A DNA stretch of 64,000 nucleotides from Savitreella phatthalungensis (lineage: Eukaryota): the NCBI GenBank assembly GCA_051599415.1, contig AP039691.1:124001-188000 (forward strand), read 5' to 3'. Shown piece after piece: positions 10,464-63,970 of this stretch (its first letter is position 1; every line of letters begins with the position of its first letter). The position numbers and the translations under genes were made by a program. The notes beneath the pieces were generated by a model that did not search any database, was not told the origin of the DNA, and worked only from the letters and a program-made list of their open reading frames with translations.

Positions 10464-11456
10464 TTCGTCCCTCTGATCATCCATCGTGCGGAAAGGACCA
10501 CTCTCCGACTTCAGGAAAGTTGACGAACTCGTCGATGACGACGATGTTCATCTTTCAACTCGTGGATATCCTGCAGGGGTTCAGGGTTTATTGTGCATAA
10601 CCCTGTTTGGTGGCAAATGGTTCAAGTCCCAACTGTGTCCAAACACTGCAGGCTGAACCATTCCCTGCACATGCATGCACGCGATAAATAATCGAGTTTG
10701 TTTCAAATTTGCATGCATCGAACGAGTTCGATTCTCTCAATTCCATCACGCGGATTCCTGCATGTTAAAGTCAGCTGCAATTTGTGGTGGCGACCGAGTC
10801 ATGGCTCCTGCAGGGAAGCATGGAAATTCACATGGGATCCAGGATTCCCAGGAGAGGATCAAGCATCTCAGGGATCAAAGAATCCGATAGACGGTGCAAA
10901 GAGTCTCTCTTCTCAACAGAGGTGCAGCTCGCAGGCAACAGTGATTGCCACTAGTCAGCGTCCTGGTTGAGTTGCTTTTTCCCAAAATAGCTCGCCCTTC
11001 CCACTTTCCTTCGTAGATCGCTCCCCAACCCCAAAAATATCGACATGATCGCCATCGTCATCGTCATTGTCATGGCACGCGGGTCGCTTACACCCAAGCG
11101 ACTGGCATCTCTCAATCACCTAAGGCTATCGTGAAAACTGCCAAACCAGGAAGTTTACTTATTGACTGAGTCTCTCACGCAGGTGCAGATGCAGATCTAA
11201 ATCGAATGAGATCAGACGGTGCATCGTGCATGATCCACATGTCATCTGTAGGAGACTTCACATTCACTTACTTATCCACTTGACACGCGTGCTCACAGCC
11301 ACGTAGACAGCAAACACATATGGGTCAAAACTCCTGAGACGGAAAACAGACTCAAACAAACCCAAGATGACGTGATTGAGAGATATTCATTCGCTTGTGA
11401 GAACGGAACTTGATAAATCTCTCTAAGCTGACTACGATCTGATGACGAAGGTAGCC

Positions 11457-13253: not shown

Positions 13254-13315
13254 GAGGGAAAGAGAGGGAGAGAGAGGGTCGAGGATGTCGATTCAGTCCA
13301 AGCGAATACCATGCC

Positions 13316-13326
13316 CTCTTATACTC
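13316..13326 (-). promoter_or_regulatory. TATA-like element (GAGTATAAGAG)
   Basis: About 65 nt upstream of ATG 13253; same motif as at 10452 and 15518. Confidence 0.5.
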
Positions 13327-13821
13327 ATCTCCTGGTCGATAGTGGGTGATTGGACTATGGCCTGGGAGATGAGATATGTCCACGAGCTCATCACTTAGAT
13401 TTTCGCGTGCGCGTGCCTATGTATCGCTTCTAGTATCGAGGAATGACCAGAGGGACAAGTTACCTGTCGCCAGTGTTGCACGATCCAAGGGATCCTGAAA
13501 CAGGCATCTGGAGCTTAGGTCATGATATGTATCCGCAGCACCTTGCGGAATCAGCAAGCTGCCGAGCTCGCTTACTCTGTACCCTTCTAACGACGTCTCA
13601 AGCAAACCTCAATCAACAAACAAATACATCCTCACGATGACAGCAAAGATCATGCTTGCAATTTCACGCAGATGACTAGAGATCAGTAACCAAACGAGAT
13701 AGGATTGTGTAACTAGCGCGTCGTTGAGGAAGTGCTTCTTTGGAGGGTACGAATGGAGAAGCGCTTGGTCCGTAGTTGAATGCGGACTCGAGCTCAGCGT
13801 GTCAAGAAATGATTTTGACGT

Positions 13822-15438: not shown

Positions 15439-15517
15439 GCTGAGGAAGGGATCCTAAAGATGCGAGATAGACGAAGTCGTTGAGTTTGTGGATCGTCTTG
15501 ATAGCAGGATAGACCTC

Positions 15518-15528
15518 CTCTTATACCC
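15518..15528 (-). promoter_or_regulatory. TATA-like element (GGGTATAAGAG)
   Basis: About 80 nt upstream of ATG 15438. Confidence 0.5.
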
Positions 15529-16068
15529 TGCCGCATCCCGGCTCCAGGAGCAGCCATTTCACGTTGCCAGAGCCGCTTGACCCTGAAGCGAATGGCTACA
15601 TCCAGTCACAGGCGCTCGTAAATTTGGTCTCCTGAAGATTCGAGAAAGTCAGGTCACTCTTTTCGCTTTTGTTTGAGAAGTTGCGTCGTGGCTGCTCCTG
15701 AGGAAGCTCATGTCGAAGCGCTCGTTCCGCGAGCTGCAGATGTGGCAGATACGCTTGGCGAGCTGCTATTTAGAGATCGCTGTTGAGTTGCGCTCATACG
15801 GCTGAGACGATGACGCGACATCAGTTTGTGATCTGTGACGACGCGCGAACAGGGAAACTGTTCCTTGGAGTAGCGTGCACGACGAGGATGCGAGACGAAT
15901 ATCAGGTCAGCTGGTCAGCCAGGTCACGGAGTCATTTGGTGTGTCTAATTTGAAAACGCCATGCTTGGTCTATCGTGGTGGAGTTGTCGTGCTATGCTTG
16001 AGATGTGCTTTGCCAAGACACTTCCACGTTGAAGAGTGCGAGACTCCAGACTCCCTGAGTCATCTCGC

Positions 16069-16896
16069 TTAGTCGACATAGCACGTCGCGTTGTTCTGGG
16101 CCATGTAGTCAGGACACTGAATGAGTTTGTAGTCGACGATTGGGTTATCCCACGGAATCGAGCCGACCTGGGGATCCTGGAGCATAATGTCAAAGTGAGC
16201 AGACATGCCGTACTTGTTCTTGGCTGGCGGCGTAGGACACCACTGCTCGTTGCCGTTTGTCGGGCACAGGTTGGTGACCATGACGGTGATCTTTGTGCCT
16301 GTGGCAGCGCCTTTGCCCTGACTGCCGCCGTCGACAGCAGCCTTTGCCGTGAGCTCGTAACAGAAGCCGCAACCTGGTCCAAGCCACGTGCCCGGTCCGA
16401 AGAGGGCAGGAGAGCCAGCTGCCGTGTACACCATCTTTTCAGCATATCCCTTCTGCCACTCTGCCATGATTTCACCAGGACCACCGCATCCGCACGCTCC
16501 CTTCTGATGATCAAAGTACCGAGTCGTGGTCGCCGTGCCAGACGTTGACGCACCGGGCCAAGTACCAAAACCTTTGAGACCAGCTGGACTGGTGTCGCCG
16601 ACGGAAGGCTTGTCAGGCGTGCTCGAGGATGCAGGAATTGCAGGGGTGGCGATCGGGCTGGTGATTGAGCTGGTATTGAAGTCTACCTTGCCGGAGAACG
16701 CTGCGGTGATGTCGGCACGAGATGGAGCAGTTGAAGCGTCTGGTAATGCTATGCTCGGTGTGGGATTCCCGACTGAAGTAGTGACCTTGTTGCTGGTCGA
16801 AGCCGCTTTTGGCCGACATTGCTTGACAGTCTTACTGGAGGCAAACGGGAAAGACAGGAGAAGGAAAGGAAGTGAAGTGCGCAGGTGCAGGTGCAT
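16069..16896 (-). CDS. Secreted GH45 subfamily-B endoglucanase (Trichoderma Cel45A/EGV-like)
   Basis: Signal peptide and S/T/P linker, then TTTRYFDHQKGACGC, YTAAGSPALF, GPGCGFCYELT, VMVTNLCP, NEQWCP and HFDIM. Both catalytic-type Asp residues (YFD, HFD) are present. Confidence 0.92.
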   Translation of the reverse strand: MHLHLRTSLPFLLLSFPFASSKTVKQCRPKAASTSNKVTTSVGNPTPSIALPDASTAPSRADITAAFSGKVDFNTSSITSPIATPAIPASSSTPDKPSVGDTSPAGLKGFGTWPGASTSGTATTTRYFDHQKGACGCGGPGEIMAEWQKGYAEKMVYTAAGSPALFGPGTWLGPGCGFCYELTAKAAVDGGSQGKGAATGTKITVMVTNLCPTNGNEQWCPTPPAKNKYGMSAHFDIMLQDPQVGSIPWDNPIVDYKLIQCPDYMAQNNATCYVD

Positions 16897-33992: not shown

Positions 33993-36900
33993 CTATCGAT
34001 GTCGAGCAGTCGTGATACCATGTGACTGCGGTGACATCTGTGTGATGGTGCGCGCTGTTGGGGACGAGGTGATCTGGACTGATTCAGTACTGACTGCTGC
34101 GGAGAGCATGCGTATTCGTGGAGTACCCGGATGTGACAGTTTCCCTTTCGTATGTCGCTTTCCTGGCGTTGTCGGTGCGTCAGTGCGGCCGACTGAAATA
34201 CTTGACGACTTGGCTTGACGCCGTATGCCTTCTGGAGTCGTCGTGCCAAACTTTACAGGCTGACCGTCCCGTAGGCGTTCTGGCGATGACGATGGCGTTC
34301 GTGCGGCAGATCGCCTGTGCAGGGATGGAGATCTTCGGGCGCCTGACAACTTAGCAGGAAGCGCGGACTCATCATCGAAGATCTCCTCAATCTTGGTGCC
34401 GGGGATGATTCCACTGGATGTACGTCGCCGCTTGGCGACCCCGCTCACTCGAGCCCGCGGCGTCCAATTCCGGCTCGATAATACAGTGCAGTCGTTCGTG
34501 CTCTGTGACAGAATGGATATCGAATCGTCATCGCCGTCAGAGGAAGCGATCGCGATGGGACAGTCGATCGAGCCAATCGAAGTGTCCTCTGCACGATTGA
34601 GTCTCGGCGGGGAACCTTGGTCATTGGATGCGACTCTCCGCACAGATTGCGGACTTCGCCTGCGATTAGTATCGGACCCAGGAGAAGGAAACCCTGTGCG
34701 ACTGCTGGACAGGGGCACAGCCTCGACTGGCACGGTAGAGGTGTCGTCTCGAGGCCGAGCTGATGCTTTTCCATGCACCGGACTGCGAGGAATCGTAGTC
34801 AAGGGCGACGCAACCTGTGGCTCCTTGCTGACAGTGACTGATGAGCTCCGTCGTTCCCGACCTGGTGAGCTCTGCACAGTCGAATCGCTATTTCGACCCG
34901 CTTGCGGGGATGCTCGCTTGGATCGCTGACTGATCTCGCGCGAACTGTGACGCTCTCGTCTCGGTGACAACGATGCCGATGCTCGTTTATGCTTCGGTGA
35001 CTGATCGTTCCTTGCTGTCGAAGCTTTAGACGAGATTGATCTCGCAGACATCGCTGTTGATTGCCTGACTATTTCCGGCCGCTCAGTGCGTGAGCCTGAC
35101 CTTGATGCGTTGCGCGATCGTTCTTTCACAGTCCTTGACATGGCCAGTTGCTCCTCCTCTTTCGAGTAGTCACCTGCAAGCATGAGTTGTAGCAAATAGT
35201 CGTCCATTGAATCATCCGAAGCACTCCATTCGAGCTCACCGAGGTCATTCTGCTCCTTCCTGTTGCCTGTAGCATCGAGACCATGACGCGAGCCTGTCTG
35301 GCTGTCGCGCCGAAAGAGCGGTTCTTTGTCATTACGCGATTTCAAGTCCTGCCACCAGTCAATATCGTCAGCGTCCAGGTGGTCCTCAAGGCCACCAGGT
35401 GTTGCCCTGGTCGCAGGCAGACATGCACCCAGGGCTTGTTCAGTTATGGAGGAGTCCTCAATGCTGCCGTTACCCAACACCTCATTAATCCCGACAGCTG
35501 TCTTCATGTCAAGCAGGACCGATAGATCTTGTGTATCATGAGGCCTTTCCGAGGTTGCTGTCGATGAGGTATTGCGATCAGACGGACTGAATCTCGAAGA
35601 CGTTTCTGAGCCGCATACCGAAGAGTCAATAACGATGATGGCATCCCTGTTGGCCGTAGTTGTGGACGCACGGATGGCTTGAGCCATCGCCTGCTCGAAG
35701 TCTTGGTCATATCGACCATTCTGTTCCTCCTGCTGCTGACGCTGGTGCTGATTGCGCCGAGCGACAGATTTGACCCGTTTTCTTGGTACCTTTGTGAGCG
35801 CCACTTCAGCCTCAACCTCATCGTCGATTAGACGCTGTTCGAAAGCAGCTTCATCCTCGCTATCGTCGATGATGGCATCTTCCTTAGCTCGCCACTGTCC
35901 AGCCTCGAATTCAACTTGCGAAAGCAGATCTGGTGAGTCCCACGCGATCGCTCTGCGACACCCATCTTCGACAACGTGGTAGAGTTTTGATAATTGCTTG
36001 TAAATGGTTGTCGTCCTCCAAAAGTTGTGTTCATTTACAGATTCCTGAGAATGACGCTCTTCCGGCGATCGCGAATCAGTCTGAGAGAGCCCACAGAGGA
36101 GCTCGAATGCTGCATGGGCAATCAAATGCCGCAAAAGCTTTCTCTGACCACCATAATCGCGCGCGAGGATGTAGTCGAGGTCCTGTAGGGAGACATCGAC
36201 AAGCTCTGTCTCCTCATACAGCGTGCAGTTCAGCACAGAAAGCATATGCCTGGCGGCCTGATTCCGATCGTGTCGATAGAGTGTGGCGCGTGAGAGACCC
36301 GGACGATAGAAAACTTGGGTGGTCGTCACGTTGTGCCACGATTCAAGTCCTGGAATGAGTTGTTCTTTGCGGGGACCCATGTCGTAAGTGCCGGCACATG
36401 ATTGGCAGTCGCGCTTGAGCACGACCGATCGATCGATGAGTGCTTTGAGATATCGCGGTGATGTGTCTACTGCAACGACCATTTGTTTGGGGCCATCCAG
36501 AAGCTCGGCCCATCTGCGACGGCCATAAAAGATTCGTGGCCTAGCGCGGCGTGATCGCCGCGGGAATGACAAGTCCGTCGAAAGCGTCATCTCGTGCGCA
36601 TTCCAAGCGATCTCTTCATCTGCAGTGTCGGCCGTATCAGGTCTGCGATTGGGCCTATATCTTTGGGAGTAGTCTGAGACGTTGCTGCAACCTGCCGTAG
36701 AAGGACGATAGCTGTCGCTTGAGCTGCCGCTCGCGACAGTTGTTGGACGAGCTGCCATGGCTGTTTGTGTAGCTTTCGCTTGTGCAATGCGTGCTGACGG
36801 CGGCCTGGAGGGCTTGTCCTTTGTTTCGTGATTGCCCTGATGCTTCAGCGGCAGGATGATGATCTTCGAATTGGCGTCTACCTTTCTTCGTTTGGATGTT

Positions 36901-38084
36901 GATCCAGAGGTTGCGCTAACGGATCGTGGCCGCTTGAATGAACCGGTGGAGTTACTTGGAGTGGTGCCTGCTGTGAGCGCAGAGAGTGCTGGCTCTGCAG
37001 ACGTGCCATGTCCGGTGGAGCTTGTCGTCGCGCTTAATGAGATAGGGCGAGCTCGACCCATCGAAGTACCTGTAGAAGGCCATTCGGAAGAAGAAGGTAG
37101 TGGAATATGAGAGTTTGCAGAAGAGGAAGGCCGTGGCAGGTGAGAATTTGCGGACGATGGCGGTGATGGATCCTCGGGCACGCCCCAAAACTTGGCGCTG
37201 GCGACCGCGCCCCAGTGTTTGGCGCGCGCCGAAATACCGCCGCGTGCCTGCGCGTCGTGAGCCTGATCGGCCCATATTTGGGAGAAGATTTGATTGTGTC
37301 GGTAGACGAGGGCTGAAAAGATGACTGTCTTTGACCAGCGGAGCACGGTATCTTCATACAGCATGTGCGTGAGGATATATCTCGCGAACGCATCGGCGAA
37401 GTCAGCGCCGTTATTGAGGACAGCCAAACCGTGCATGGCTGGTGCAAGCTTTTCCTTGATCGCAACCCAGTACGGCATGGTTTGAGCTTTGCAAGATGTC
37501 CGGCTGGCTTTGTATGTGGCGGCTTCGATGATTGAGATCCGACGGCTCTGCGGAATTTCTTCGTTTTCATCCGGATAGTATTCGGCAAGAGCAGCCTCGA
37601 TGAATTGCTCGCGTACGCTGCGCATGATCCAATAGACTCGAGCCTCAAGATGCATCTGTTGAAGCGTCTCTTCAAATCCTGCAGCAGCCGTCTCCAGCTT
37701 GTACCAACACCGTGATCCAAGAAGGTAGAGGCGACAGTTATAGTCAAGTGGATCTGCACCCTCGGCACATTCTGCATCCTCGACCGCCCAATTTCGAATA
37801 TCTTCGACAATGATGTAGTCGTCCGCTGTATCGTTAGCATGGCGACCCTTTCCTACAACACGACAGACCATCTCGACTGGTGCGTTGAGAGAGCAATCAG
37901 ACAGCGCGTCGACGGGCTTGTCATTATCCCGTTCAGCGCAGTACCGTGGATGTCTCTTATCTCTGCGGATGAAGACCTCATGGACATCGTGGATAGGCCA
38001 ATCTGCAAAGTGTCCTTTCGGAATGGAGAACCGATGTGCCTCTGATTTGTAGACCTGAGGCATGGGATTGGAGGGATGTGCCAT
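33993..38084 (-). CDS. RFTS (DNMT1-RFD)-domain protein, Raf2/Dos2-like, with UIM-like motifs and a long disordered tail; likely start 38084
   Basis: N-terminal DWP...IIVEDIRNWAVE...LYLLGSRCWYKLE pattern is RFTS-like. Two helical repeats end WSKTVIF and WRTTTIY, as recalled for S. pombe Raf2. DQDFEQAMAQAIRAS is UIM-like. Confidence 0.65.
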   Translation of the reverse strand: MAHPSNPMPQVYKSEAHRFSIPKGHFADWPIHDVHEVFIRRDKRHPRYCAERDNDKPVDALSDCSLNAPVEMVCRVVGKGRHANDTADDYIIVEDIRNWAVEDAECAEGADPLDYNCRLYLLGSRCWYKLETAAAGFEETLQQMHLEARVYWIMRSVREQFIEAALAEYYPDENEEIPQSRRISIIEAATYKASRTSCKAQTMPYWVAIKEKLAPAMHGLAVLNNGADFADAFARYILTHMLYEDTVLRWSKTVIFSALVYRHNQIFSQIWADQAHDAQARGGISARAKHWGAVASAKFWGVPEDPSPPSSANSHLPRPSSSANSHIPLPSSSEWPSTGTSMGRARPISLSATTSSTGHGTSAEPALSALTAGTTPSNSTGSFKRPRSVSATSGSTSKRRKVDANSKIIILPLKHQGNHETKDKPSRPPSARIAQAKATQTAMAARPTTVASGSSSDSYRPSTAGCSNVSDYSQRYRPNRRPDTADTADEEIAWNAHEMTLSTDLSFPRRSRRARPRIFYGRRRWAELLDGPKQMVVAVDTSPRYLKALIDRSVVLKRDCQSCAGTYDMGPRKEQLIPGLESWHNVTTTQVFYRPGLSRATLYRHDRNQAARHMLSVLNCTLYEETELVDVSLQDLDYILARDYGGQRKLLRHLIAHAAFELLCGLSQTDSRSPEERHSQESVNEHNFWRTTTIYKQLSKLYHVVEDGCRRAIAWDSPDLLSQVEFEAGQWRAKEDAIIDDSEDEAAFEQRLIDDEVEAEVALTKVPRKRVKSVARRNQHQRQQQEEQNGRYDQDFEQAMAQAIRASTTTANRDAIIVIDSSVCGSETSSRFSPSDRNTSSTATSERPHDTQDLSVLLDMKTAVGINEVLGNGSIEDSSITEQALGACLPATRATPGGLEDHLDADDIDWWQDLKSRNDKEPLFRRDSQTGSRHGLDATGNRKEQNDLGELEWSASDDSMDDYLLQLMLAGDYSKEEEQLAMSRTVKERSRNASRSGSRTERPEIVRQSTAMSARSISSKASTARNDQSPKHKRASASLSPRRERHSSREISQRSKRASPQAGRNSDSTVQSSPGRERRSSSVTVSKEPQVASPLTTIPRSPVHGKASARPRDDTSTVPVEAVPLSSSRTGFPSPGSDTNRRRSPQSVRRVASNDQGSPPRLNRAEDTSIGSIDCPIAIASSDGDDDSISILSQSTNDCTVLSSRNWTPRARVSGVAKRRRTSSGIIPGTKIEEIFDDESALPAKLSGARRSPSLHRRSAARTPSSSPERLRDGQPVKFGTTTPEGIRRQAKSSSISVGRTDAPTTPGKRHTKGKLSHPGTPRIRMLSAAVSTESVQITSSPTARTITQMSPQSHGITTARHR

Positions 38085-42010: not shown

Positions 42011-43546
42011 CTAGGCGCGGCCTTTGTCAGCCCGGATTCGAATCAAGGTCACGCCATCAAAGATTGGTAAGAGGACGCAATCAAGTTGGGGATCTCTTTG
42101 GACGGCCGCATTGAAAGAGCGGACCGCTTCCACCGTCGATACAAAGTCTTCATGTCTTTGCCTCTGCACCTCTGTCGGAGCAGGATGGCGGGGTGGCATT
42201 TGCTCGCTGGTCGCGGCTGCAAAGCCACGGCGCAGGGTGTTATCACAAACAATCACGCCGTTGCTGCTCAGTAGTTCGCGCGAGAGGACAGCCTCGAGAT
42301 AGTCCGCATAGCCTTGCTTTTCGGCATCAATGAAGATGAAGTCAAATTTTCCATCAACAACACCAGCGTCTCTGATCGTCTTATGAGCATCGCCTTGCAC
42401 CACGCGGATTGCACTAGAAGGTGGACAGATCTTGTGAACGGCAAGCTTCGCAAATGATGCGAGCCCAGGGTCCAATTCCAGTGTGACGACCTCTTCCGCT
42501 CCAGCGAAGGCTGCTACAAGAGCGCTGAAGCCTGTATAACAGCCAATTTCGAGCACACGCTTGACACCGTGCGCTCTGATCATGAACGACTGCCACTGAG
42601 CCTGATTGAGAGTGATCATCATCATCTCGCCGTATGCGTCAATCGATTCTTGCCGATGCTGCAAGAGCTCTGGAGCCAGCGGAGTGCTCGCATTTGTGCA
42701 GTACCTATCCAGAATCCCAGGTTCAAGAGTCGGTAATCCCAGGCCGCCATCCTTACCTCGAGCAGCCAGGTCTGCATGCTTGCCAAGACCGAGACCGAGT
42801 TCTGAACTCTTCACAGCTTTCGAAGTTGACGCTGCATGGGCATCCGCTTTGGCTTGCTGGTCGAGGAACGAGGTCGTCATCGACTCAGGCACGGGAGAAT
42901 TGTAGCCTGTATTGGCAGCGGTGGTAGTCGTCGTATCCGCAGGCGTATCTTGTGGCAGCAAGACAGAAATGAAGTATGACAGAGCGTCCGGATAGATATC
43001 GTCTTTGAGGAAAAGGGCAGCTTTCTCGAGATCTGTTGTCTCGTCTGACGTTTCAGTGAGGCCAAAGAGGTGGAAGAAGGAATAGCGTTTCTCGCGACGA
43101 GCGAGGTAGCATAGATTCTGGCGTTCTGAAACCCAACCGATCTCCGTCGGAGGACTCGTCAGCTCACCTTCTAAGCTGAAGCAGAAATCTCTCTGAAGCA
43201 ACGTTGAGCCTTCCGGTAAGTACGCGTTCGGCTCGAATGTCATGCTGAGACGCCAGTCATCACCAGACTTGCCGCCGAGATATTCTGTTCGAACATCTAT
43301 ACAGCTCTTCAGCAGATCGAGCTCTGGAGGGCCAATGAAAGGCTTCAGCTCTTCTGCGGCAGCGAAAACAGTGCACCAGAATCGAGGTACAAGACTTGTC
43401 ACCTTGGAACGCTTGGTATATAGAGGAGCGTACATGTCTGCTTCCTTGCGCTTGACCTCGATGGCCATATCTGCAAGCTGTTCATCGAGGTCTCCGAGCA
43501 GGTTGACGAGTGCGTCTGCTGCATTCCTTTGAGCATTGGCAGCCAT
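42011..43546 (-). CDS. Fusion ORF: NAP/SET-family histone chaperone domain plus class I O-methyltransferase (COMT/CCoAOMT-like)
   Basis: N-terminus: PLYTKRS..VPRFWCTVF, FEPNAY, TEIGW, SFFHLF, KDDIYPDALSYF. C-terminus: KRVLEIGCYTGFSAL, FDFIFIDAEKQGY, VCDNTL, LPIFDGVTLI. No stop between them. Confidence 0.85.
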   Translation of the reverse strand: MAANAQRNAADALVNLLGDLDEQLADMAIEVKRKEADMYAPLYTKRSKVTSLVPRFWCTVFAAAEELKPFIGPPELDLLKSCIDVRTEYLGGKSGDDWRLSMTFEPNAYLPEGSTLLQRDFCFSLEGELTSPPTEIGWVSERQNLCYLARREKRYSFFHLFGLTETSDETTDLEKAALFLKDDIYPDALSYFISVLLPQDTPADTTTTTAANTGYNSPVPESMTTSFLDQQAKADAHAASTSKAVKSSELGLGLGKHADLAARGKDGGLGLPTLEPGILDRYCTNASTPLAPELLQHRQESIDAYGEMMMITLNQAQWQSFMIRAHGVKRVLEIGCYTGFSALVAAFAGAEEVVTLELDPGLASFAKLAVHKICPPSSAIRVVQGDAHKTIRDAGVVDGKFDFIFIDAEKQGYADYLEAVLSRELLSSNGVIVCDNTLRRGFAAATSEQMPPRHPAPTEVQRQRHEDFVSTVEAVRSFNAAVQRDPQLDCVLLPIFDGVTLIRIRADKGRA

Positions 43547-44011: not shown

Positions 44012-44587
44012 TCACCATCCTGCGCCTGGCCGGCTCAGATACTCCTGTTCTGCGTCGGTCGAGGCACGACCAAGTATCGCATTGCGACTTGGATAGCGAC
44101 CGTATTGTCGGATGACATCGCGGTGGCTGCGTGCAAAGTTGAGACTTTGTTCCCGCCCTAGGGCTTCGAACTTTGCCACGCACAGATCCTGCATCGAGCG
44201 TGACTCGGCATGCATCATTGGCATGTATAGGAATGCTAGACGTTCGGCCGGATACTGATCTTCCCACCCTAGATCGATTGCGCTGAGGCACAGATCGAGT
44301 GCTAGCGGATCAGCAGCAAAGGCCAGCGCCGACCCGCGGTACATATTACGCGAGAACTGGTCAAGTAGGAGGATCGCAGCTAGCACTGTATCAGGCTTCT
44401 CACGCCAGCCGACTGCGTCAGTTGCCAAGACCTGATCACGCAGCGGCCTATATCGCTTGATCAATTCCTGGTCGAGTGCGTCATACTTGGCAAAGTGCCG
44501 TTCCGGTGGCAATCCGAACCAGAAGTCGAGAATATCGCGCGCCTGCGTGCGAACCTGTGCCTCATCCATTCCTAGAGCGGCAGTCAT
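44012..44587 (-). CDS. DUF924-family protein (bacterial-type, about 191 aa from ATG 44587)
   Basis: ILDFWF, ILLLDQFSRNMYRG..AFAAD, FLYMPMMHAES, HRDVIRQYGRYPSRNAILGRAST. Confidence 0.9.
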   Translation of the reverse strand: MTAALGMDEAQVRTQARDILDFWFGLPPERHFAKYDALDQELIKRYRPLRDQVLATDAVGWREKPDTVLAAILLLDQFSRNMYRGSALAFAADPLALDLCLSAIDLGWEDQYPAERLAFLYMPMMHAESRSMQDLCVAKFEALGREQSLNFARSHRDVIRQYGRYPSRNAILGRASTDAEQEYLSRPGAGW

Positions 44588-45077
44588 GTTGTACTTCCCC
44601 GAGCCTGAGATTACTAGTCTATGTTGCCGGCTGAAAACTGACGAAAGTGAAAGAGTTCGTGCGATTGCCGCCTTTGATCCCATCAACAAGTAGTGCTTTT
44701 AACTGACAGAAACCGTGAAGCACAAGTCACAGAATAGTGAGATGCGGGGTGCAATGACCTCAATGTCCTGCTCGACCTGAAGAGCGGGATGTCGGAATCG
44801 TAAGAAAATCTCGGAGTCCAACAGCGGAAGTGATCTGTTTTATATAGCTCTTGAGTGACCTTGCAGCGACCACAGGAGTAATGAGGGGTTGCGTGGACGT
44901 AGTTCATCATACTGGTTCCGAACCTTTAGACTTTATAAGCGTTCGATACGTGCATGTGCATTCGTGCAGGTGCATTTGGACGCGGATGCACAATTGATCA
45001 AAGACGTGACTGAAATGAACTGAATTGATATCCTCCAAGAACGTATGCATCCACATATGCAGTCAATTGTCCGACAG

Positions 45078-49720: not shown

Positions 49721-51526
49721 ATGTCCGACAGCGACGATGACCGCGAATGGGCAGAGGCAGAGCCGCTCGACCCGGCGCTCATGACACTTCCAGAGCCGGA
49801 GCTCTTGCAATACAGCATGTCAGGACTCTACAGGCGATACCTCAACGGAGAGCTCGACTTGCAACCATACTACCAGCGTGACGTCGTCTGGCGTGAAGAC
49901 CGTCAGTCAAAACTCATCAACAGTTTATTCAATAATTTCGTCGTCCCACCGGTCATTGTCAAGCAGCGGTACGTCAACGTTCCCGGAAGAGACAAACCCG
50001 TGGAAGTAATGGCTGTCATTGACGGAAAGCAGCGTCTGTCGAGTGTTTTCGCATTTCTGAACGGCACCATCCCATACATCGACCCCACAAAGCAAAGGTG
50101 GTTCTTCCCAACGATGGACGCGGCAAACAAGCAAGGAAAGCTTCTCACAAAAGCAATGCTGAAGGAATTCCGTGCAAAGACATTCATGGTCGTGGTCTAT
50201 AAAGAACTGCAGCCCGCTCAGGAGGAGGAACTCTTTGCTCGCTTCCAACAGGGCATGCCACTTACCCACGCAGAGCGCGTCCAGGCGTGCTCAGGTCCAT
50301 GGAACAAACTCGTCGACTGCCTCCTGAAGGAGTATCCAACCTCGACCGTACTCACATTTACTCAGACGCGCGGAAATCGTTTCGGTCATCTCATCCAGGC
50401 GGTTATCGTCTGCTGGGAGTATGCAAAGGGTGGTATGCCCAAGGTGAAAACATGGACCGCCTCCAGCATCCGGCTCCGCAGACTTGTGGCGTGTCAAGAT
50501 GGTGCACCGACACAACGATTCTGTGCTCGGCTCACAAAGGTGTTCAGTGTCCTCGCAGACATCGTCAAAGCTCGGCCAGACATCTTCTCACATACATTTC
50601 CGTTTGCACCACATCGATTCTCCCCGATCGAATTCGCCGCAACGGTCTTGCTCGTGGATCGCTGGCTGGATCACCGTGACGATCTAGCACTGGCCGACGA
50701 CATCCTCGGCATGCGTCAGTGGATCCGGTCGGACAAGCGCGTTGTCGATCTCAAGACAAATTCGACAACCTGGCTACACTTCTGGGCGTGGATCGACCAG
50801 CTGACTTCGATGCGAGGTGAAGCCAGACGGCCACATGCCCGTCCTCAGCCGCCACCTTTGCGGGGTCTTGATGACATCCAGCCCCAGCCTGGTCTCGTTC
50901 CAGAATCGAAGATCAACCGACCATCAGGCATCATCGAGGGCTACGAAGACGTACTCGGCATGTCCACCAGTGCAGGAAAGAAGCGTGCCTCTGACGGCAA
51001 GGTGAAATCCAGCAGCGCTAGCAGCAAAAGCCGTAACAGGACAGCTGCAGCAACGTCAACGCCTACCCCAACACCACCACCACCTGCTGCACCAGCCAAG
51101 CCAAAGCCACGCGCACGCAGGACAGGTAAGCCGGTATCAGCATCACCATCGGTGGCAGGTGGCATGAGTAATGGTCATAGCTCACGACCAAGCACCAAAC
51201 GCGATCCAGATTCCTCGATTTCTTCAAATGATGGTGGAGACGCTGACGACGACGATAATGAATCTGGGGCAGGCTTTGCAGAAGGTGATGCAGATGGGCT
51301 TACCGACGCCATCTTCCAGGACAATCTCGCTAGCAATCCCTCATGGACACGCAACGGTGTGTCATCTGCATCACATCATTCGCCTGCTGCGCCCGCAGGA
51401 ATGCTATCGACTGAGTACGAAGAGTTCAAAGCCTTCCAAGAGTTCAAAGCGTACAAGGCGGCGATGCAGCAGCAGCAGCAGGCTAGTCCTGGAGGATCAG
51501 CGGGTAAGCGGTCACGGTTGGTCTAG
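49721..51526 (+). CDS. DUF262 (ParB/Srx-like, GmrSD N-terminal-type) domain protein with a disordered C-terminus
   Basis: PYYQRDVVW, LINSLF, PPVIV, VIDGKQRLSSV, ELFARFQQGMPLT..E. Confidence 0.85.
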   Translation: MSDSDDDREWAEAEPLDPALMTLPEPELLQYSMSGLYRRYLNGELDLQPYYQRDVVWREDRQSKLINSLFNNFVVPPVIVKQRYVNVPGRDKPVEVMAVIDGKQRLSSVFAFLNGTIPYIDPTKQRWFFPTMDAANKQGKLLTKAMLKEFRAKTFMVVVYKELQPAQEEELFARFQQGMPLTHAERVQACSGPWNKLVDCLLKEYPTSTVLTFTQTRGNRFGHLIQAVIVCWEYAKGGMPKVKTWTASSIRLRRLVACQDGAPTQRFCARLTKVFSVLADIVKARPDIFSHTFPFAPHRFSPIEFAATVLLVDRWLDHRDDLALADDILGMRQWIRSDKRVVDLKTNSTTWLHFWAWIDQLTSMRGEARRPHARPQPPPLRGLDDIQPQPGLVPESKINRPSGIIEGYEDVLGMSTSAGKKRASDGKVKSSSASSKSRNRTAAATSTPTPTPPPPAAPAKPKPRARRTGKPVSASPSVAGGMSNGHSSRPSTKRDPDSSISSNDGGDADDDDNESGAGFAEGDADGLTDAIFQDNLASNPSWTRNGVSSASHHSPAAPAGMLSTEYEEFKAFQEFKAYKAAMQQQQQASPGGSAGKRSRLV

Positions 51527-56196: not shown

Positions 56197-57240
56197 ATGT
56201 GGGGACGTTTGCAAGCGTCACTCTCGCCCATGCTACTAGCGCTCTTTCAACTACCACTCCTTGCCGTTGGCGAAATTCGGACACAGCTGGAATCACCCTG
56301 GCATTTGGAGCGCATCTCACGGCCTTATTCGCTTGTTCCAGACGATGGCCGCAACATCTGGGAGCGTGATATCTCTAGGAACGAATACGAGTATCGCTAT
56401 GATAACGGCGCCCGCGGTACAGGCGTCCTCGCATTTGTCCTCGATCTCGGCGTTCAGAACAGTCAATTCACTTTGCAAGGACATACTGAAACTCCTCCTG
56501 AAGCAGACTTCTCCCGCTTCTATGACCGCTGGTTCCATAAGTACATGATACTGGAGGAACCACTTGAGCACGGCACCGCTGTTGCAGGCGTCCTCGGTGG
56601 CAGGGGAATCGGTGTTGCTCCAGAAGCACAGATGATTTCTGTCCGAGTAGGTCGACTTTATGGCATGATCAGCATCGTCTCTGCGATACAGTACATCTCA
56701 CACCGCATCATTCGAGATCGCAAACCTGCAGTCGTCAATTTCTCGCTCGGTACACGGCTCAATCATCCTTTCGTTCGCGCCATTCTACGTCTTCAAGCCT
56801 TAACGAATGCGCACATTGTCTCTGCTGCGAGCAATAGCAATGGCAACACCTGCAGATTCACTAGCATAAATTGGCTTCACGAAGTCATCACAGTTTCCGG
56901 CACCGATTCGGACGACAACTACATTGACCCGGGTCCGTCGGGCTCGTGTATCGACATTCTTGCTCCGGCGGTAGACATACCCACAGCTCGAGCCAGTCCG
57001 AGATCCGACGTGAGCATGTTACTAGTCACGGGCAACTCGGTGGCTGCGCCGCTCGTCTCAGGCGTCCTTGCGTGCTGGCTGTCGAATCAGCGCCTCGCGC
57101 CATCACTCAACCCGCCACGTGCAAAGGCCTTGCTGAGGTCGAACGCTTGGCACGATGAGATTCATGACTTGCCCCGCGATGTGCCTAACCTGTTACTGCG
57201 CTCAGTCCTGCAAGGTAATCTCCCAAATTCATCGCCCTGA
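56197..57240 (+). CDS. Secreted S8 subtilase (proteinase K-like) #1; triad intact, no I9 prodomain
   Basis: Signal peptide then PWHLERIS; FVLDLG (Asp codon at 56443), EHGTAVAG (His at 56569), AASN, GNSVAAPLVSG (Ser at 57037), VPNLLL. Confidence 0.88.
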   Translation: MWGRLQASLSPMLLALFQLPLLAVGEIRTQLESPWHLERISRPYSLVPDDGRNIWERDISRNEYEYRYDNGARGTGVLAFVLDLGVQNSQFTLQGHTETPPEADFSRFYDRWFHKYMILEEPLEHGTAVAGVLGGRGIGVAPEAQMISVRVGRLYGMISIVSAIQYISHRIIRDRKPAVVNFSLGTRLNHPFVRAILRLQALTNAHIVSAASNSNGNTCRFTSINWLHEVITVSGTDSDDNYIDPGPSGSCIDILAPAVDIPTARASPRSDVSMLLVTGNSVAAPLVSGVLACWLSNQRLAPSLNPPRAKALLRSNAWHDEIHDLPRDVPNLLLRSVLQGNLPNSSP

Positions 57241-57541
57241 AACTGAGCACACCGAGTCATCCATCGAGACCTGCACGCTGTGCACCACAAGACCGGTCGC
57301 ATGACCCCTGGTCAACATACCGAAAATCCTTCATGTGCTAGGGTCGTCCATTCCACGACCGTACATGCCGCAAGTAAACTTGTCACATGGCAATACTGCC
57401 TTTCAGACCTGACTTGTATGTCCCGGTCGATGTGCGATCCATGCTCTCGATGCTGCTTGTGTCCGGCTCAGCTAGTCTTGCATCGTTGAACTATCATTTC
57501 AATTGACTTAGGTGGACACAGGCCTGCACGCCGAGTCCGCA

Positions 57542-58624
57542 ATGACAAGCTCCGCTGCAGGACTGCTGGTTTTATTCTTCATTGATTGCGCCCATGCCGT
57601 CTTCCTAAGCGATGTCGGTACTTGGGGTTTGGAACGCATCTCGCTCGCACCATGGCACACCGGCGTGAGTCGATGGAGTACTCGGGATCGATCGCCCTCT
57701 TCTGCGGACTTCGTTTACAACTACGACTCGCGTATGGAAGGCGCACGAACAAGGACATATATCATCTCGGCCGGCGTAGACTGCCATCATCGCGCGATCG
57801 AACACAATGCTCAATGTCGACTTCTCGCAGATTTCCGACGCCATCGCGAAGAGCCGGATGAGCGGGCGACTTCGATGCGCATGGGTACGGCAATAGCAAG
57901 TATCGTCGCAGGGTCCATTGTTGGCGTTGCAAGAGAATCACGGGTGTTCTCCGCCAGAGTCGACCGCGGCGCGACAGTTTCGAGTATCATCGACGCGCTT
58001 GGGTGGGTAGAAAATCACGTCTACTTTGCCCACTGGCCAGCCTCACTCCTATTGGGCTATCAGATACCCAACAATCTAGCTCTTACTCGAGGTCTTGAAC
58101 GACTCTACCATCGTGATGTCTTCATTACGGGTTACGCAGTCATAGGCTCAATCAACACCTGTGACGAGGCTTTGATCCACAACATGGACGAAGTCATGAC
58201 GGTCAGTGGCACGGACGCCGATGACCGGTACATGCCATCGCCACTCAGCCCGCGTGGAGGCTGCATCGACATACTAGCTCCGTCAGTCGAGGTGCCTGTG
58301 GCTTACTACGATCCTGAGGCCGTCGACCTCCTTGTCTCTTCAACCCATCCAGCAATCGGTGCCGCCTTCGTCTCCGGCGTCACCAATACTTGGCGCTCTC
58401 TACCACGATTCAGACACTTCCCGCCGACTCAGATCAAGCGCATGCTTCATGGCTCAGCGTGGCATAACAGTATCTCTGGCGTACCCCAGGAGGTGCCCAA
58501 CCTCCTCCTCAGGTCATTCCTGCCGCCGTCGATGACACGAGACGTGCCAAATGACCCAGGTGATGTTGAAGACGGTCCTGAAATCGGACTCGGCCACGAT
58601 GGCGGTCTCGCTCAAGATCAGTAG
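57542..58624 (+). CDS. Secreted subtilase-like pseudoprotease #2
   Basis: TWGLERIS; YIISAGV (D>S), MRMGTA (H>M), THPAIGAA (Ser lost); CIDILAP, VPNLLL. Confidence 0.85.
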   Translation: MTSSAAGLLVLFFIDCAHAVFLSDVGTWGLERISLAPWHTGVSRWSTRDRSPSSADFVYNYDSRMEGARTRTYIISAGVDCHHRAIEHNAQCRLLADFRRHREEPDERATSMRMGTAIASIVAGSIVGVARESRVFSARVDRGATVSSIIDALGWVENHVYFAHWPASLLLGYQIPNNLALTRGLERLYHRDVFITGYAVIGSINTCDEALIHNMDEVMTVSGTDADDRYMPSPLSPRGGCIDILAPSVEVPVAYYDPEAVDLLVSSTHPAIGAAFVSGVTNTWRSLPRFRHFPPTQIKRMLHGSAWHNSISGVPQEVPNLLLRSFLPPSMTRDVPNDPGDVEDGPEIGLGHDGGLAQDQ

Positions 58625-58842
58625 CGTCATCGACATCCGGCTGGCCCGCCTGGTCACGGCCCACACGCACAGCTCGCACCCGATGCATAATCAATCTGCT
58701 TTCAAACACCCTAAAAGTAAGACTCGATGACCTCCTCATGCTAATGAGCCAAATGAGCAGATGACCTCTTTCAGTATCATCATCTGCAATCGATGAATGT
58801 ACATTTACATCTACATCGACGCCTGCTGGCCTCACTCGCTCG

Positions 58843-59877
58843 ATGCTTGCACCCTTGACGATTTGTGTCGTGTTACCCTTGGCTACTGCTGACAACAGAT
58901 ATGTGCGTCTGGCTGATTCATCCTGGCCACTCGAACGCATCTCTCAGGCACCTTGGTCCGGTGGGCCTCATGTCTGGGATCTTGGCGATCGATCTGTGGT
59001 TGACCTGAACTTTCACTATACAGTCGACTACGACCTCCGCGGACGAGGCGTCAACGTCTACGTTCTCTCCAACGGCGTCGATTGCCAGCATAGGATCATG
59101 CTCCACAGAGCCATCTGTCCGAATCGAGGCGACTTCAGTGGCACATCTGGCTCATCCTCGACCGAAGAGCATTCTTCTCGCTCCATGCGCATCGGCACCG
59201 CCGCTGCAAGTGTCGTCTGCGGCGACAGCGTCGGATCAGCCGCATCAATCCTCAGGCTCAGCTCTACGAGAGTCGCCACTACCACAGCCCTCAGTACCAT
59301 CATCCGTGCCCTCCAATACCTAAGCTACAGTCGGGGAATGCATCTCGGCCCAATGATCGTCTTGCTGACGATCCAGCTGCCCAGGCAAGACGCAGTCGCA
59401 GCTGCCATTCGACATTTGTACGAGCGAGCAGAAATCACGATCGTCGTCCATGCAGCCCATCAATCCATGGATGCCTGCGACAACAGTCTGATTCAAAGCA
59501 TGGATGAAGTCATCACAGTAAGTGGCACTGATGCGTACGATCGCTACATCTCAGAAACCACCGGTATTCACCCGACGGGCAACTGTATCGACATCCTCGC
59601 TCCGGCGGTCAACGTTCCGGCTGCATATTACGACGCGGTCGATAAGACACTGCTCGCAGCCATGAATCACACGATCTTAGCCGCTGGTCTTACGACCGGT
59701 GTCATCGCTACTTGGCTTGAGCACTTCCGCGAGTACAATCCAGTCCAAGTCAGGAGGCTTCTCCAAGGCACTGCTCGGCACAACCAAGTCAGAGGAGTTC
59801 CCGAAGGCGTTCCAAATCTGCTCATTCGATCGCTCCTACCGCCATGGGTAATTGATCCTCACGATAGAACGATCTGA
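58843..59877 (+). CDS. Secreted subtilase-like pseudoprotease #3
   Basis: SWPLERIS; YVLSNGV (D>S), MRIGTA (H>I), NHTILAA (S>I); CIDILAP, VPNLLI. Confidence 0.85.
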   Translation: MLAPLTICVVLPLATADNRYVRLADSSWPLERISQAPWSGGPHVWDLGDRSVVDLNFHYTVDYDLRGRGVNVYVLSNGVDCQHRIMLHRAICPNRGDFSGTSGSSSTEEHSSRSMRIGTAAASVVCGDSVGSAASILRLSSTRVATTTALSTIIRALQYLSYSRGMHLGPMIVLLTIQLPRQDAVAAAIRHLYERAEITIVVHAAHQSMDACDNSLIQSMDEVITVSGTDAYDRYISETTGIHPTGNCIDILAPAVNVPAAYYDAVDKTLLAAMNHTILAAGLTTGVIATWLEHFREYNPVQVRRLLQGTARHNQVRGVPEGVPNLLIRSLLPPWVIDPHDRTI

Positions 59878-60035
59878 ATTAGTCACAGCGGCGTGGCAGC
59901 CAGTCATGCGCATCTCAAGATAACTGTTCCTCCGGCTTCGGCATGTTCATATGATCACATGATTGTCCGACCGTCATCGCAATGCCGTCTTCCTGTGCCG
60001 TCAAAGACGAGCGTACTCCCGCCCAGCAAGGCAAT

Positions 60036-61067
60036 ATGCGGGCATTCTTGCCAGTGCTGTTACAGTTCGCGACTCTGGCCCTGTTCGCTGCCGGATGGAT
60101 CGATTCGGAACGGTCTATCTGGCCGCTTGAGAGAATCTCACGAGCGGGCTCGCTCCATCCAGGAGATGGTATGAACATCTGGATCAGGTCCGTGGACTCT
60201 CCTGACTACACATACAGATTCGACGTAACGATGACTGGCAGAAACACAATAGCGTACGTCATCTCAACCGGTGTCGACTGCGACCATATCACGCTAGAGG
60301 GTAAAGCACATTGCCTCTCCAGTGCAGACTTTCACAACCCCGCGGAAATCGGTGTAACTACCGCCGGATCACTCTTCTGGGGCACAGCCACCGCCAGTCT
60401 CATTGCTGGCGACATCTTTGGTGTTGCCAAAGACGCAGAAGTCGTTTCCGTCAGGCTAGGAGGCCCAGTGACGGCGATCAGCGAAATCATCAACGCTCTT
60501 CAGTGGATTTTGCATGACTACTCGCAGAGACACCAGCCAGCCTCCCTCCTCATGACCTACACTATACCTATGCGCCCTGATTTAGCCAGCATCATTGACC
60601 GGCTCGTCATGCAAGCCAACATCGCCGTTGTTGGTCACGCCATCAACGCCTCGATTGATACGTGTACCGGCATGATACACTCCCTATCGCAGTACATCAC
60701 GGTCAGCGGTTTAGATCACTGGGACCACTACATGGAGCCGGACACGCCGTTCGGCAGCTGTATTGACATCCTTGCCCCTGCCATGGAAGTACCGGCCGCT
60801 GTCCACACGCCAGACAGCAATGACGAGATGGCCATGCTCAGTCATACATCGCTTGGAGCCGCTCTTGTTCTTGGCGTTGTCAACTGCTGGAGGTCACATC
60901 CGCAGCTTTACCGTCTTCAAGTAAGGCACTTGAGATACTTGCTGCGTGAGTACGCATGGGCACATGAGATTGTTGACGTGCCGGAAGGCGTATCAGACCT
61001 ACTCTTACATTCTATTCTTCCTCTCGGCTGGCGGTCAATGCTCTCTCCGGACTCCTTTGCTTCGTAG
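60036..61067 (+). CDS. Secreted subtilase-like pseudoprotease #4
   Basis: MRAFLPVLL signal; IWPLERIS; YVISTGV (D>S), FWGTA (H>W), HTSLGAA (Ser kept); CIDILAP. Confidence 0.85.
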   Translation: MRAFLPVLLQFATLALFAAGWIDSERSIWPLERISRAGSLHPGDGMNIWIRSVDSPDYTYRFDVTMTGRNTIAYVISTGVDCDHITLEGKAHCLSSADFHNPAEIGVTTAGSLFWGTATASLIAGDIFGVAKDAEVVSVRLGGPVTAISEIINALQWILHDYSQRHQPASLLMTYTIPMRPDLASIIDRLVMQANIAVVGHAINASIDTCTGMIHSLSQYITVSGLDHWDHYMEPDTPFGSCIDILAPAMEVPAAVHTPDSNDEMAMLSHTSLGAALVLGVVNCWRSHPQLYRLQVRHLRYLLREYAWAHEIVDVPEGVSDLLLHSILPLGWRSMLSPDSFAS

Positions 61068-61472
61068 GCCCGCTCCGTCCGTCACATCCGGACTTGCCAA
61101 GCGCCTGACTTCCGCCTCGGTCGACTTCAGTGTCAATAAGTCCCTCTCAGTCTCATCATCTGACCCGTAGCCGCAACATCACCTGACAATGCTCGCTTGA
61201 CCTTATCCTTGACGTCCGTTTCAGCTTTCATACCTCGCTCAACCTCCAACACATCCGCATCCGACAACACAATACGTTGACTACGCGTAGTAACAGAGTA
61301 CTGACACGCTCACTTCAACCACAAACTCACCGATGTATGACCACCTGGCATTGCGAAGCTGCCAAATAACCGATCTAAGGGATACACGGTACATCAAGAC
61401 GCGATCCCTGATCTCTAGCTCAAAAGTCCTCAAGTCTTCTAGCCTTGTTCTCAAGGCCTAAGATCTCTTGCG

Positions 61473-62576
61473 ATGATGCTTCCTCCACTATATGTATTTG
61501 TGCAGTCGTTCGCCGTCTGGTATGGCATACATCAGCTTTCGTCGGCAGAGACCCTCACGATGCAGACTCCAAGCTGGGCGCTCGAACGCATCTCTTTCCG
61601 ACGGCAACCCATCGATCCACAAATCACCAACTCACGAGAGAGAATGTCAAGCCGGAGGTTCACCTACATATGGGATTCGCAGGCGCAAGGCAGAAACACA
61701 GATGTCTACGTCTTTGGTACAGGAATTGCTTGCCACGCTCCGTTCTTCACCAGAGGTCACGTTGTCTGTGACCCTGGTGCAGACTTTCATCGAGGCATCT
61801 TTACTCGCAGTGCACCAGCACTCCATATCATACGCTCTACTCTCGATGAGTCCGGAACCGCTCTATCGTCCCGTGTAGCTGCCGTCGTAGGCGCTACGGA
61901 AGTCAGTGTCGCTCGTCAAACTACGGTCAGAGCAGTCAAGATCAGCTCTCCAAGGCTACGCAGATTTCACACAACCAACTTGATCGATGCGCTCGACTAC
62001 GTCCACCACAGGCATACTGTCCTTCGCGCGCATGCGCACATCCCTATCATCATCTTGACCTTTTCAGCAGACCGTATGCAAGCGATAGACACGGCCTTCG
62101 CCCGTGTTCTTCAGGCCAGAATTAGCATCATCATTGGCCACGGTGAGCAAGAGAGGAACTCTTGTGAGGATACACCAAACTACATGGCAGGAGCCATTGT
62201 CGTTGGGGGATCCACAGTCATGGATGGCTGGATGGCCGAGCAAGGTAGCGAAGAGTCTTCGAACTGTGTCGCAATCATAGCGCCCGCTGAACGAGTCCTC
62301 TCAATGTTCTACGACTTCAGAGCTCGAGAGCAGTGGTACGTGCGGGACTCAAATACCGTCTTCAGCGCGGCCCTCGTCGCCGGCACACTTGCTACTTGGC
62401 TCTCATATCCAGTGATCTCCAGGCGTCCTGATCTCACGCCAGAACGACTCAAAGCTCTCTTACAGATCCAAGCGAACGACAATCAGATCTCGAATGTGCC
62501 ACCGACCGTACCGAACCTGCTTTTGTTTGCACGTGTACCAGAGTATCCATCGGGGATGGCCGCAGCCGCTGCTTAG
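61473..62576 (+). CDS. Secreted subtilase-like pseudoprotease #5
   Basis: SWALERIS; YVFGTGI (D>G), ESGTA (H>S), NTVFSAA (S>V); VPNLLLFARVPEYPSGMAAAAA. Confidence 0.82.
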   Translation: MMLPPLYVFVQSFAVWYGIHQLSSAETLTMQTPSWALERISFRRQPIDPQITNSRERMSSRRFTYIWDSQAQGRNTDVYVFGTGIACHAPFFTRGHVVCDPGADFHRGIFTRSAPALHIIRSTLDESGTALSSRVAAVVGATEVSVARQTTVRAVKISSPRLRRFHTTNLIDALDYVHHRHTVLRAHAHIPIIILTFSADRMQAIDTAFARVLQARISIIIGHGEQERNSCEDTPNYMAGAIVVGGSTVMDGWMAEQGSEESSNCVAIIAPAERVLSMFYDFRAREQWYVRDSNTVFSAALVAGTLATWLSYPVISRRPDLTPERLKALLQIQANDNQISNVPPTVPNLLLFARVPEYPSGMAAAAA

Positions 62577-62887
62577 CTTGAGCCCGAGACAGAGCCTGAC
62601 CTCAGCCCTCTATCAGCGTATCACGAGAGCCTCAAGAACAAACATCGCCTCGTCGCGTTTAGGCCTCGTGCGTCGCCGATTGAGATAAGGCACCCTAAAT
62701 GCGTTCCTGTTCTCACCCATCCGTCCCTTTCGGCCCGTAAGATTCGCGTCTCAGGCCGTGCACAATATTCCACTTCAAACGTCCGAGCCTCAGATCTCTC
62801 AGTCCCAGACTTCTTTGATAAAGCTCCAGATCTTCTCGATCTTCGCCATTTTCACTCAACTCAACTCACTTCATATACTAGCTCGCG

Positions 62888-63970
62888 ATGCGACTGAATC
62901 GTATCTCATTCATCCTTTGTCTGCTACTGCAAGCAGCTTGCCACGACATCATCCATCGGACGCGCAGCTGGGCACTCGAACGCATCTCCTTGCAGCGCGA
63001 ACGACCCAACATGCAGATCCAACGGGCTCGCGAGGAGTTGGGGTTGGATGCATTCCACTATCTGTATGAGTCTCTTGCCAAAGGCGTCGGCTCGCACGTT
63101 TACATTCTCGGGTCCGGTATTGCGTGCGATGCCGACTTCTTCGACGGCCATGCACACTGCTCACCGGCTGCGGACGTACGATCATTCAGCCACATTCGAT
63201 CGCTGACAGGCAAGTCGCCCTCATCACTCGACACTAAAGGCGATTCGACGGCGACCTGCGTAGCATCCGTTGTAGGCCACTCGAGCATTGGCGTCTCCCC
63301 GAACGCTACGATTCACTCCGTCAAGATACTCTCCGGCACGTCCCACTACGCACGCACCTCCTCGATCATCAAAGGAATCGAATACGTTATCACCCGTCAG
63401 CGACTCGGCCACCATTCCGTCTTGCCGATCCTCGTCAACACCTTGATGATGACCAGGAACGGCCAAGGCGCTATTCAGACCGCATTCGATCAAGCCATTT
63501 CAGCCAAAGTGGTAGTCGTCTCGTCAGCTGGCGTAGAGCAGAAAGACGCTTCATATCTGATTCCGCACGAAAACCCCGGAGTGATCGTCGTCGGTGGGAC
63601 AACGATCAAGGATGAGTGGTGGCAGCCAAGCAATCACGGTCCAACGGTCACTCTGCTTGCGCCTGCAGAGCGTGTGCCGGTCAATATGGTCGTCAGGACA
63701 GGTCCAAAAAGATCCATCACGATTGAAGTTAGCAGCTATTCATCGTCCACGCTGTTGGCAGCGTCTCTCGTCGCAGGAACCTTAGCCAATTGGCAGTCAT
63801 ACCGAACCATTCGTGAAGTGCCAAATCTCACCCCTGCGCGACTCAAAGCTCTTCTCCTCGCACAGACTAATCCTGACCGGATCGACAATGTCCCAAGCAA
63901 CACCGTTAATAAGCTCCTGTTTGCAAGACCGCCTGAGTATCCTGCTGGGACGGCGGCTGCAGCTGCGTAG
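62888..63970 (+). CDS. Secreted subtilase-like pseudoprotease #6
   Basis: SWALERIS; YILGSGI (D>G), DSTATCVAS (His lost), STLLAAS (S>L); SNHGPTVTLLAP, TVNKLLFARPPEYPAGTAAAAA. Confidence 0.85.
   Translation: MRLNRISFILCLLLQAACHDIIHRTRSWALERISLQRERPNMQIQRAREELGLDAFHYLYESLAKGVGSHVYILGSGIACDADFFDGHAHCSPAADVRSFSHIRSLTGKSPSSLDTKGDSTATCVASVVGHSSIGVSPNATIHSVKILSGTSHYARTSSIIKGIEYVITRQRLGHHSVLPILVNTLMMTRNGQGAIQTAFDQAISAKVVVVSSAGVEQKDASYLIPHENPGVIVVGGTTIKDEWWQPSNHGPTVTLLAPAERVPVNMVVRTGPKRSITIEVSSYSSSTLLAASLVAGTLANWQSYRTIREVPNLTPARLKALLLAQTNPDRIDNVPSNTVNKLLFARPPEYPAGTAAAAA

Follow-up and report, generated by a model that had tools for sequence, protein, structure and literature searches.

In this study, we analyzed a 64,000-nucleotide stretch of the genome of Savitreella phatthalungensis (GenBank assembly GCA_051599415.1, contig AP039691.1, positions 124,001 to 188,000), referred to below as the window and numbered from its first letter. 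S. phatthalungensis is a member of the Taphrinales (PMC13531029; papers given by PMC number are cited from excerpts of their text). Our subject is a gene in which a NAP-type histone chaperone domain is followed by an O-methyltransferase domain. A preliminary description, made from the sequence alone, had reported it as a single open reading frame (ORF) at 42011..43546. These coordinates are correct; the frame lies on the minus strand and encodes 511 amino acids (P0001), while the plus strand contains stops throughout the same interval. The reported absence of a stop or an obvious intron also held, as the 511 codons are uninterrupted and a scan for donor, branch and acceptor sites gave 0 consensus candidates, and every NAP and methyltransferase motif quoted at that time is present in the translation. 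Pfam NAP was assigned to aa 48-192 (E 6.4e-11; 42.4 bits, cut-off 28.6) and Methyltransf_3 to aa 292-503 (E 1.9e-31); the latter is complete, as had been proposed, with intact residues for binding of S-adenosylmethionine (SAM) and metal. AlphaFold models of P0001 and P0012 contain two confident domains and a linker with a predicted local distance difference test (pLDDT) value <50, at predicted template modelling (pTM) scores of 0.48 and 0.52. The models predict no fixed contact between the domains, which are arranged like beads on a string.

Homologues and spread of the fusion

Homologues were compared as predicted proteins. A word-indexed protein search, in which 7999 candidates of 281-895 aa were scored, returned 12 proteins including the query. 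The 11 other clusters, 467-563 aa long, align with 96-99% of the query at 40-43% identity, and both Pfam families are present in each of them (11/11). They include CCG82052.1 of Taphrina deformans, which is annotated only as 'putative O-methyltransferase'; altogether, the annotation names of 9 out of 10 fusion homologues are uninformative. A profile of the 12 fusions was then compared with 1.84 billion 50%-cluster representatives. Among the best 150 of 14330 matches, P0008, P0001, P0007 and P0017 were matched across both halves. Pfam scans of 45 of these 150, chosen as long, two-stretch or NAP-matching, found both domains only in P0017, and the other, unscanned rows matched the enzyme part only. 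P0017 represents a 13th fusion cluster; its two domains and linker align with those of the query at 31% identity. The architecture is thereby common to 13 clusters, of which the 12 others are 31-43% identical to the query, in agreement with the earlier proposal of a chimeric protein; the single origin of the enzyme halves and the conserved linker motif described below point the same way.

One relative from Protomyces lactucae-debilis, P0016, is annotated as partial and consists of the enzyme half without a starting Met. Because it is sister to the fusion protein P0009 (support 99), it is probably a cut gene model of a fusion. Split forms were sought among proteins of 30-255 aa, and of 581 matches the best 120 contained only P0016 as a close relative and no NAP half; lengths of 256-280 aa lay outside both word searches (30-255 and 281-895 aa). 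A metagenome scan yielded 80 loci of 90 relatives, all with the enzyme half only and without a fusion locus, and the matches listed by Atlas feature searches were all <0.9 and belonged to single-domain clusters only. The stand-alone Vps75/Ccp1 proteins that carried a species name were those of Pneumocystis and Saitoella, with no fused form of theirs among the listed matches, and therefore the range of the fusion seems to be the Taphrinales plus the lineage of P0017.

Domains, linker and conservation

The coordinates of the gene and its parts are collected in Table 1. In phmmer searches against solved structures, aa 9-205 matched Vps75 of Pneumocystis (5zb5, E 5.4e-18) and Ccp1 of Schizosaccharomyces pombe (5gpl, E 7.9e-18), and the Atlas model of the Taphrina protein P0006 resembles a SET-like structure (template modelling score, TM, 0.63). 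The C-terminal acidic tail, already noticed as missing, is indeed absent. Because the fusions lack this tail together with the basic end, the fused NAP is, by its sequence, a Vps75/Ccp1-derived domain and not a canonical NAP/SET member. Seven acidic positions of Pneumocystis Vps75 bind histones (PMC6509256); in P0006 the corresponding helix-7 positions are kept in 7/7 cases, aligned across a 5-residue insertion, and most fusion members have an expanded acidic loop immediately before helix 7. In the query itself, the NAP half has diverged further, with 37-40% identity to other fusions, compared with 50% for the enzyme.

Table 1. Position and basis of each feature of the fusion gene
Feature	Positions	Strand	Basis
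Whole NAP-linker-O-methyltransferase ORF, 511 aa (P0001)	42011..43546	minus	ATG 43546, TAG 42011-42013
Vps75/Ccp1-type NAP domain, long helix then earmuff, aa 1-195	42962..43546	minus	phmmer, model helices/strands
Long N-terminal helix, aa 2-51	43394..43543	minus	helix in model; dimerisation role by homology
Helix-7 acidic patch, aa 168-183	42998..43045	minus	alignment to 5zb5, read against PMC6509256
Flexible Ser/Thr/Ala-rich linker, aa 196-277	42716..42961	minus	pLDDT <50 for aa 194-277
Candidate phosphorylation site [ST]Gxx[ST]P, TGYNSP, aa 213-218	42893..42910	minus	11/13 fusions
Conserved motif ESMTTSFLD, aa 221-229, includes Met223	42860..42886	minus	12/13 fusions
PaMTH1/CCoAOMT-type O-methyltransferase domain, aa 278-506	42029..42715	minus	phmmer, Foldseek
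SAM-binding motif VLEIGCYTGFS, aa 331-341	42524..42556	minus	E333, G335, T338, G339, S341 in 13/13
Metal/active-site residues D407, K410, D435, N436	42239..42328	minus	role from PMC6543040

Stand-alone Vps75/Ccp1 proteins have an acidic tail and a basic end where the fusion has its linker. The linker had been called T/A-rich, which is true for its amino acids but not for its DNA (43% A+T compared with 47% for the whole gene). The internal Met reported at 42880 corresponds to Met223 (ATG 42880) and is part of the pattern E[ST]M[ST][STH]SFLD, found in 12/13 fusion proteins; back-translation of the linker-motif pattern gave a single match in the whole genome. Another motif, [ST]Pxx[ST]P, is present in 9/13 fusion proteins, the query not being among them. 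The Ser/Thr-Pro motifs of the linker may resemble proline-directed, GSK3-type and Cdc4-degron sites. The linker motif was also compared with a PIP-box, an export signal, a 2A sequence and a P-loop, and was rejected as any of these due to mismatched spacing. Neither an AATAAA-like hexamer nor an A-rich stretch was found in the linker, and a codon-usage test of the linker gave no discrimination, the bias being weak.

For the enzyme half (aa 280-506), phmmer gave PaMTH1 of Podospora (4qvk/4ymg) as best solved-structure match with E 3.8e-33. The top Foldseek match was 4ymg (E 1.7e-18, TM 0.84 by target), and the best structural matches are all small-molecule O-methyltransferases. P0001 has the hallmarks of PF01596, namely the SAM motif on a Rossmann fold, the Asp/Asp/Asn set for the metal, and a conserved Lys. 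In cation-dependent O-methyltransferases, two Asp and one Asn hold the metal and the Lys is conserved, though not essential in the enzyme studied (PMC6543040). D407 is present in 13/13 fusions, and K410, D435 and N436 in 12/13. P0017, the exception, has lost these three residues and kept E333, G335, E357 and D386, which makes it a possible pseudo-enzyme.

Conservation was calculated for a core set of 9 members, with the divergent P0001, P0007, P0009 and P0017 set aside, and for all 78 pairs. Mean identities in the core were 76% for the long helix (aa 9-55), 69% for the earmuff, 53% for the linker, 86% for aa 218-231 and 62% for the enzyme; over all pairs, the values were 61, 54, 42, 72 and 54%, respectively. 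The NAP half is thus at least as conserved as the enzyme half at the level of predicted proteins, and the pairing of NAP and methyltransferase looks maintained by selection.

Origin and paralogues

A quick, unrooted tree of 47 enzyme domains included 10 fusion rows (P0004, P0005 and P0011 were omitted) and P0016. These 11 sequences form one side of a branch with a Shimodaira-Hasegawa-like approximate likelihood ratio (SH-aLRT) of 93, which is below the starred level. The fusions sit among fungal MTH1-like enzymes, P0017 being deepest and on a long branch. In a NAP tree of 21 rows, the 13 fused and 5 stand-alone proteins separate once, with weak support (83/10). Taken together, the sequences make it very probable that this is an old gene fusion of single origin in Taphrinales-type fungi and a real, conserved fusion protein.

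The own genome of S. phatthalungensis contains at least three NAP-family loci, which encode Nap1, the fusion and a stand-alone Vps75/Ccp1 of 235 aa that carries both acidic tail and basic end. At least two Methyltransf_3 loci are present, the fusion and an enzyme of another clade that is fused to a short-chain dehydrogenase (SDR); both counts are lower bounds. As the genome keeps Nap1 and the stand-alone Vps75/Ccp1, the fused NAP is, judging by these loci, an extra paralogue. The MTH1-type enzyme was found in this genome only in fused form. A search with the stand-alone NAP recovered only itself among 708 candidates.

The SDR-fused Methyltransf_3 locus lies at L002 1225-2844 (G000:C4 near 522500). 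Its tree sister P0158 shares this architecture and is annotated as coming from a fish, which may reflect contamination or a wider family. In many matches (P0047, P0063, P0080, P0037, P0092 and others) Methyltransf_3 stands behind a rhodanese/UPF0176 (TrhO-like) or a SpoU domain, suggesting tRNA-modification enzymes in one chain.

Proposed function and alternatives

Our preferred reading, held tentatively and at a little short of an even chance, is that the gene would encode one polypeptide whose NAP dimer would position the catechol methyltransferase, the only MTH1-type one found in the genome, or regulate it. A duplicate Vps75/Ccp1 gene, deprived of the acidic tail and of the basic C-terminus, would have been fused in frame to the MTH1-type O-methyltransferase of the lineage, giving a chain in which a flexible linker connects two domains that fold independently. 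Both halves may dimerise, as judged from their families; Ccp1 does so (PMC8640933), and PaMTH1 is a dimer which methylates vicinal hydroxyls of flavonoids (PMC5945814). Likewise by family, the enzyme would use SAM to methylate one hydroxyl of an adjacent pair in catechol-type phenolics. The NAP dimer would serve as targeting or regulatory module whose remaining acidic surface binds histones or another basic client, and would thereby bring the enzyme close to chromatin or to the pool of histones; capping of redox-active plant phenolics there could limit metal-driven oxidative damage. Such capping would suit leaf-dwelling fungi, because PaMTH1 protects against metal-induced oxidative stress (PMC2806012). 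Phosphorylation of the linker at Ser/Thr-Pro sites might tune the placement of NAP and enzyme, by analogy only with the phosphorylation-dependent binding of a Ser/Thr-rich CENP-T peptide by Ccp1 (PMC8640933).

Several observations weigh against this reading. The helix-7 positions that are acidic in Pneumocystis Vps75 are acidic in only 4/7 cases in P0001. An acidic tail with basic end was found in 0/13 fusions versus 5/5 stand-alone rows, and Pneumocystis Vps75 that lacks the tail is partly impaired in histone binding (PMC6509256). No conserved cluster resembling a nuclear localisation signal was seen outside the structural helix of the fusions. PaMTH1 has been reported in cytosol and mitochondria (PMC5945814, PMC2806012), and the word 'nucleus' occurs nowhere in the text of the PaMTH1 paper that was searched. 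The enzyme half is only about 31% identical to PaMTH1, which is too low for a transfer of substrate. Finally, P0017 is fused but lacks K410, D435 and N436, and therefore selection may not keep catechol methylation.

Among the alternatives, an artefact is hardly credible: the preliminary description had considered that loss of a stop codon joined two genes, yet an assembly error or a recent event confined to this genome conflicts with 12 other clusters from several sources, which share the domain order and linker motifs and mark the fusion as old. It is rather unlikely that the gene has a dual output, with the full-length protein accompanied by a NAP-only product formed by internal polyadenylation or an enzyme-only product starting at Met223 from an internal promoter. 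Aco2-bL21, discussed below, provides a precedent in the same subphylum, Met223 is present in 12/13 members, and the Protomyces lactucae-debilis annotation covers only the enzyme half and is marked partial. However, that piece starts without a Met, P0007 has no linker Met at all, the linker lacks a polyadenylation-like hexamer or A-rich stretch, and the residues upstream of Met223 are conserved as protein, the motif being kept on both sides. Since eight ATGs lie between Met1 and Met223, leaky scanning is unlikely as well; the start context, with T at -3 for both Met1 and Met223 and also in 7/35 naive ORF starts, gave no discrimination.

We consider it improbable that the enzyme serves the chaperone, either by methylating a client held by NAP, like Vps75-Rtt109 in one chain, or by sensing of SAM or S-adenosylhomocysteine (SAH) as a switch of the chaperone. 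The chaperone would then be wired to SAM metabolism, with presentation of a histone or another basic client to the methyltransferase, or SAM/SAH gating, and linker phosphorylation as a switch, and P0017, whose SAM motif is kept and whose metal site is lost, would be a sensor-only form. The greater conservation of the NAP half in the core group, the residues retained by this deepest member and the presentation of histones to an enzyme by Pneumocystis Vps75 (PMC6509256) are in favour. But the catechol-binding metal site is kept in 12/13, all top structural matches act on small molecules, the models contain no fixed domain contact, and P0017 is a single long-branch sequence whose N-terminus is short. 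Similarly doubtful is a NAP half acting as structural scaffold only, for oligomerisation, solubility or co-expression, with no client of its own. This would fit the missing tail and basic end, the presence of stand-alone Vps75/Ccp1 and Nap1 for chaperone work, and the readiness of the enzyme family to fuse (rhodanese/TrhO-like, SpoU, SDR and tandem forms among 45 scanned matches), whereas a passive scaffold would not need the 69% identity of the earmuff, the acidic helix-7 region and the linker motif, all of which are kept.

NAP-family chaperones otherwise cooperate with enzymes that are proteins in their own right. An apparently selected, covalent fusion to a catechol-type methyltransferase across a lineage points to an unrecognised connection of chromatin chaperoning with either the detoxification of plant phenolics or SAM status, which would concern plant-associated early-diverging ascomycetes. 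The gene is small and intronless, its catalytic residues are intact and its conserved motif is short, and it is directly testable in fission yeast or in vitro. Annotations can also be corrected, as the Taphrina protein is labelled only O-methyltransferase and the Protomyces protein partial.

Other features of the window

The neighbours of the fusion gene are ordinary and unrelated (Las1, an eIF4E-family protein, DUF924 and DNA polymerase delta). The DUF924 gene, of a family described as bacterial, lies directly upstream at 44012-44683 (-). Six tandem ORFs of 344-367 aa at 56197-63970 (+) resemble diverged secreted subtilases; S8 matches were clear for one (E 8e-21), weak for four and absent for one, and their catalytic motifs appear decayed by eye, possibly indicating an expanded pseudo-protease family. 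A cluster of secreted-looking Pro/Ser-rich repeat proteins at 9821-16896 (-) includes two expansin-like (EXPB1_D1) genes (11457-12704 and 16069-16896). At 49721-51526 (+), a fungal protein with a GmrSD N-terminal (restriction endonuclease-like) domain is encoded (E 1e-16). The long ORFs 33993-38084 (-; 1363 aa) and 3820-6138 (+; 772 aa) had no Pfam match.

Comparison with known systems

Both domains, frequent fusions of the enzyme family and one fusion member in public databases are already known. A literature search, with most subscription papers outside its coverage, gave no description of a NAP-O-methyltransferase fusion, and none is mentioned in the opening part of a review on NAP proteins (PMC9128123). 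The fusion has the fold and sequence of aa 9-205 in common with the SET-type NAP chaperones Vps75 of Pneumocystis (5zb5) and Ccp1 of S. pombe (5gpl), including the long helix and, in part, the acidic patch of helix 7. It differs by the absence of acidic tail and basic end, a short hairpin loop and the C-terminal enzyme, and by a separate tailed copy in the same genome. PaMTH1 and the CCoAOMT-like PF01596 enzymes are its best match in sequence and structure, with the SAM motif and the Asp/Asp/Asn metal site in common; the low identity to PaMTH1 and the 277-residue N-terminal addition set it apart. The nearest named stand-alone enzymes (237-250 aa) are from Orbilia, Tuber, Ascodesmis, Kalaharituber, Talaromyces and Hyaloraphidium.

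Vps75-Rtt109 likewise couples a Vps75-type chaperone to a group-transfer enzyme, but consists of two proteins with a histone acetyltransferase, whereas the fusion is one chain with a small-molecule-type methyltransferase; an Rtt109-family gene is present in the own genome. Aco2-bL21 of Schizosaccharomyces is also a lineage-restricted fusion of unrelated proteins in Taphrinomycotina and is a dual-output fused gene in fission yeast (bioRxiv 10.1101/2019.12.16.879015). Its linker is fast-evolving and contains a conserved AATAAA and an internal cleavage site, while the linker of the NAP fusion lacks such a hexamer and carries conserved peptide motifs.
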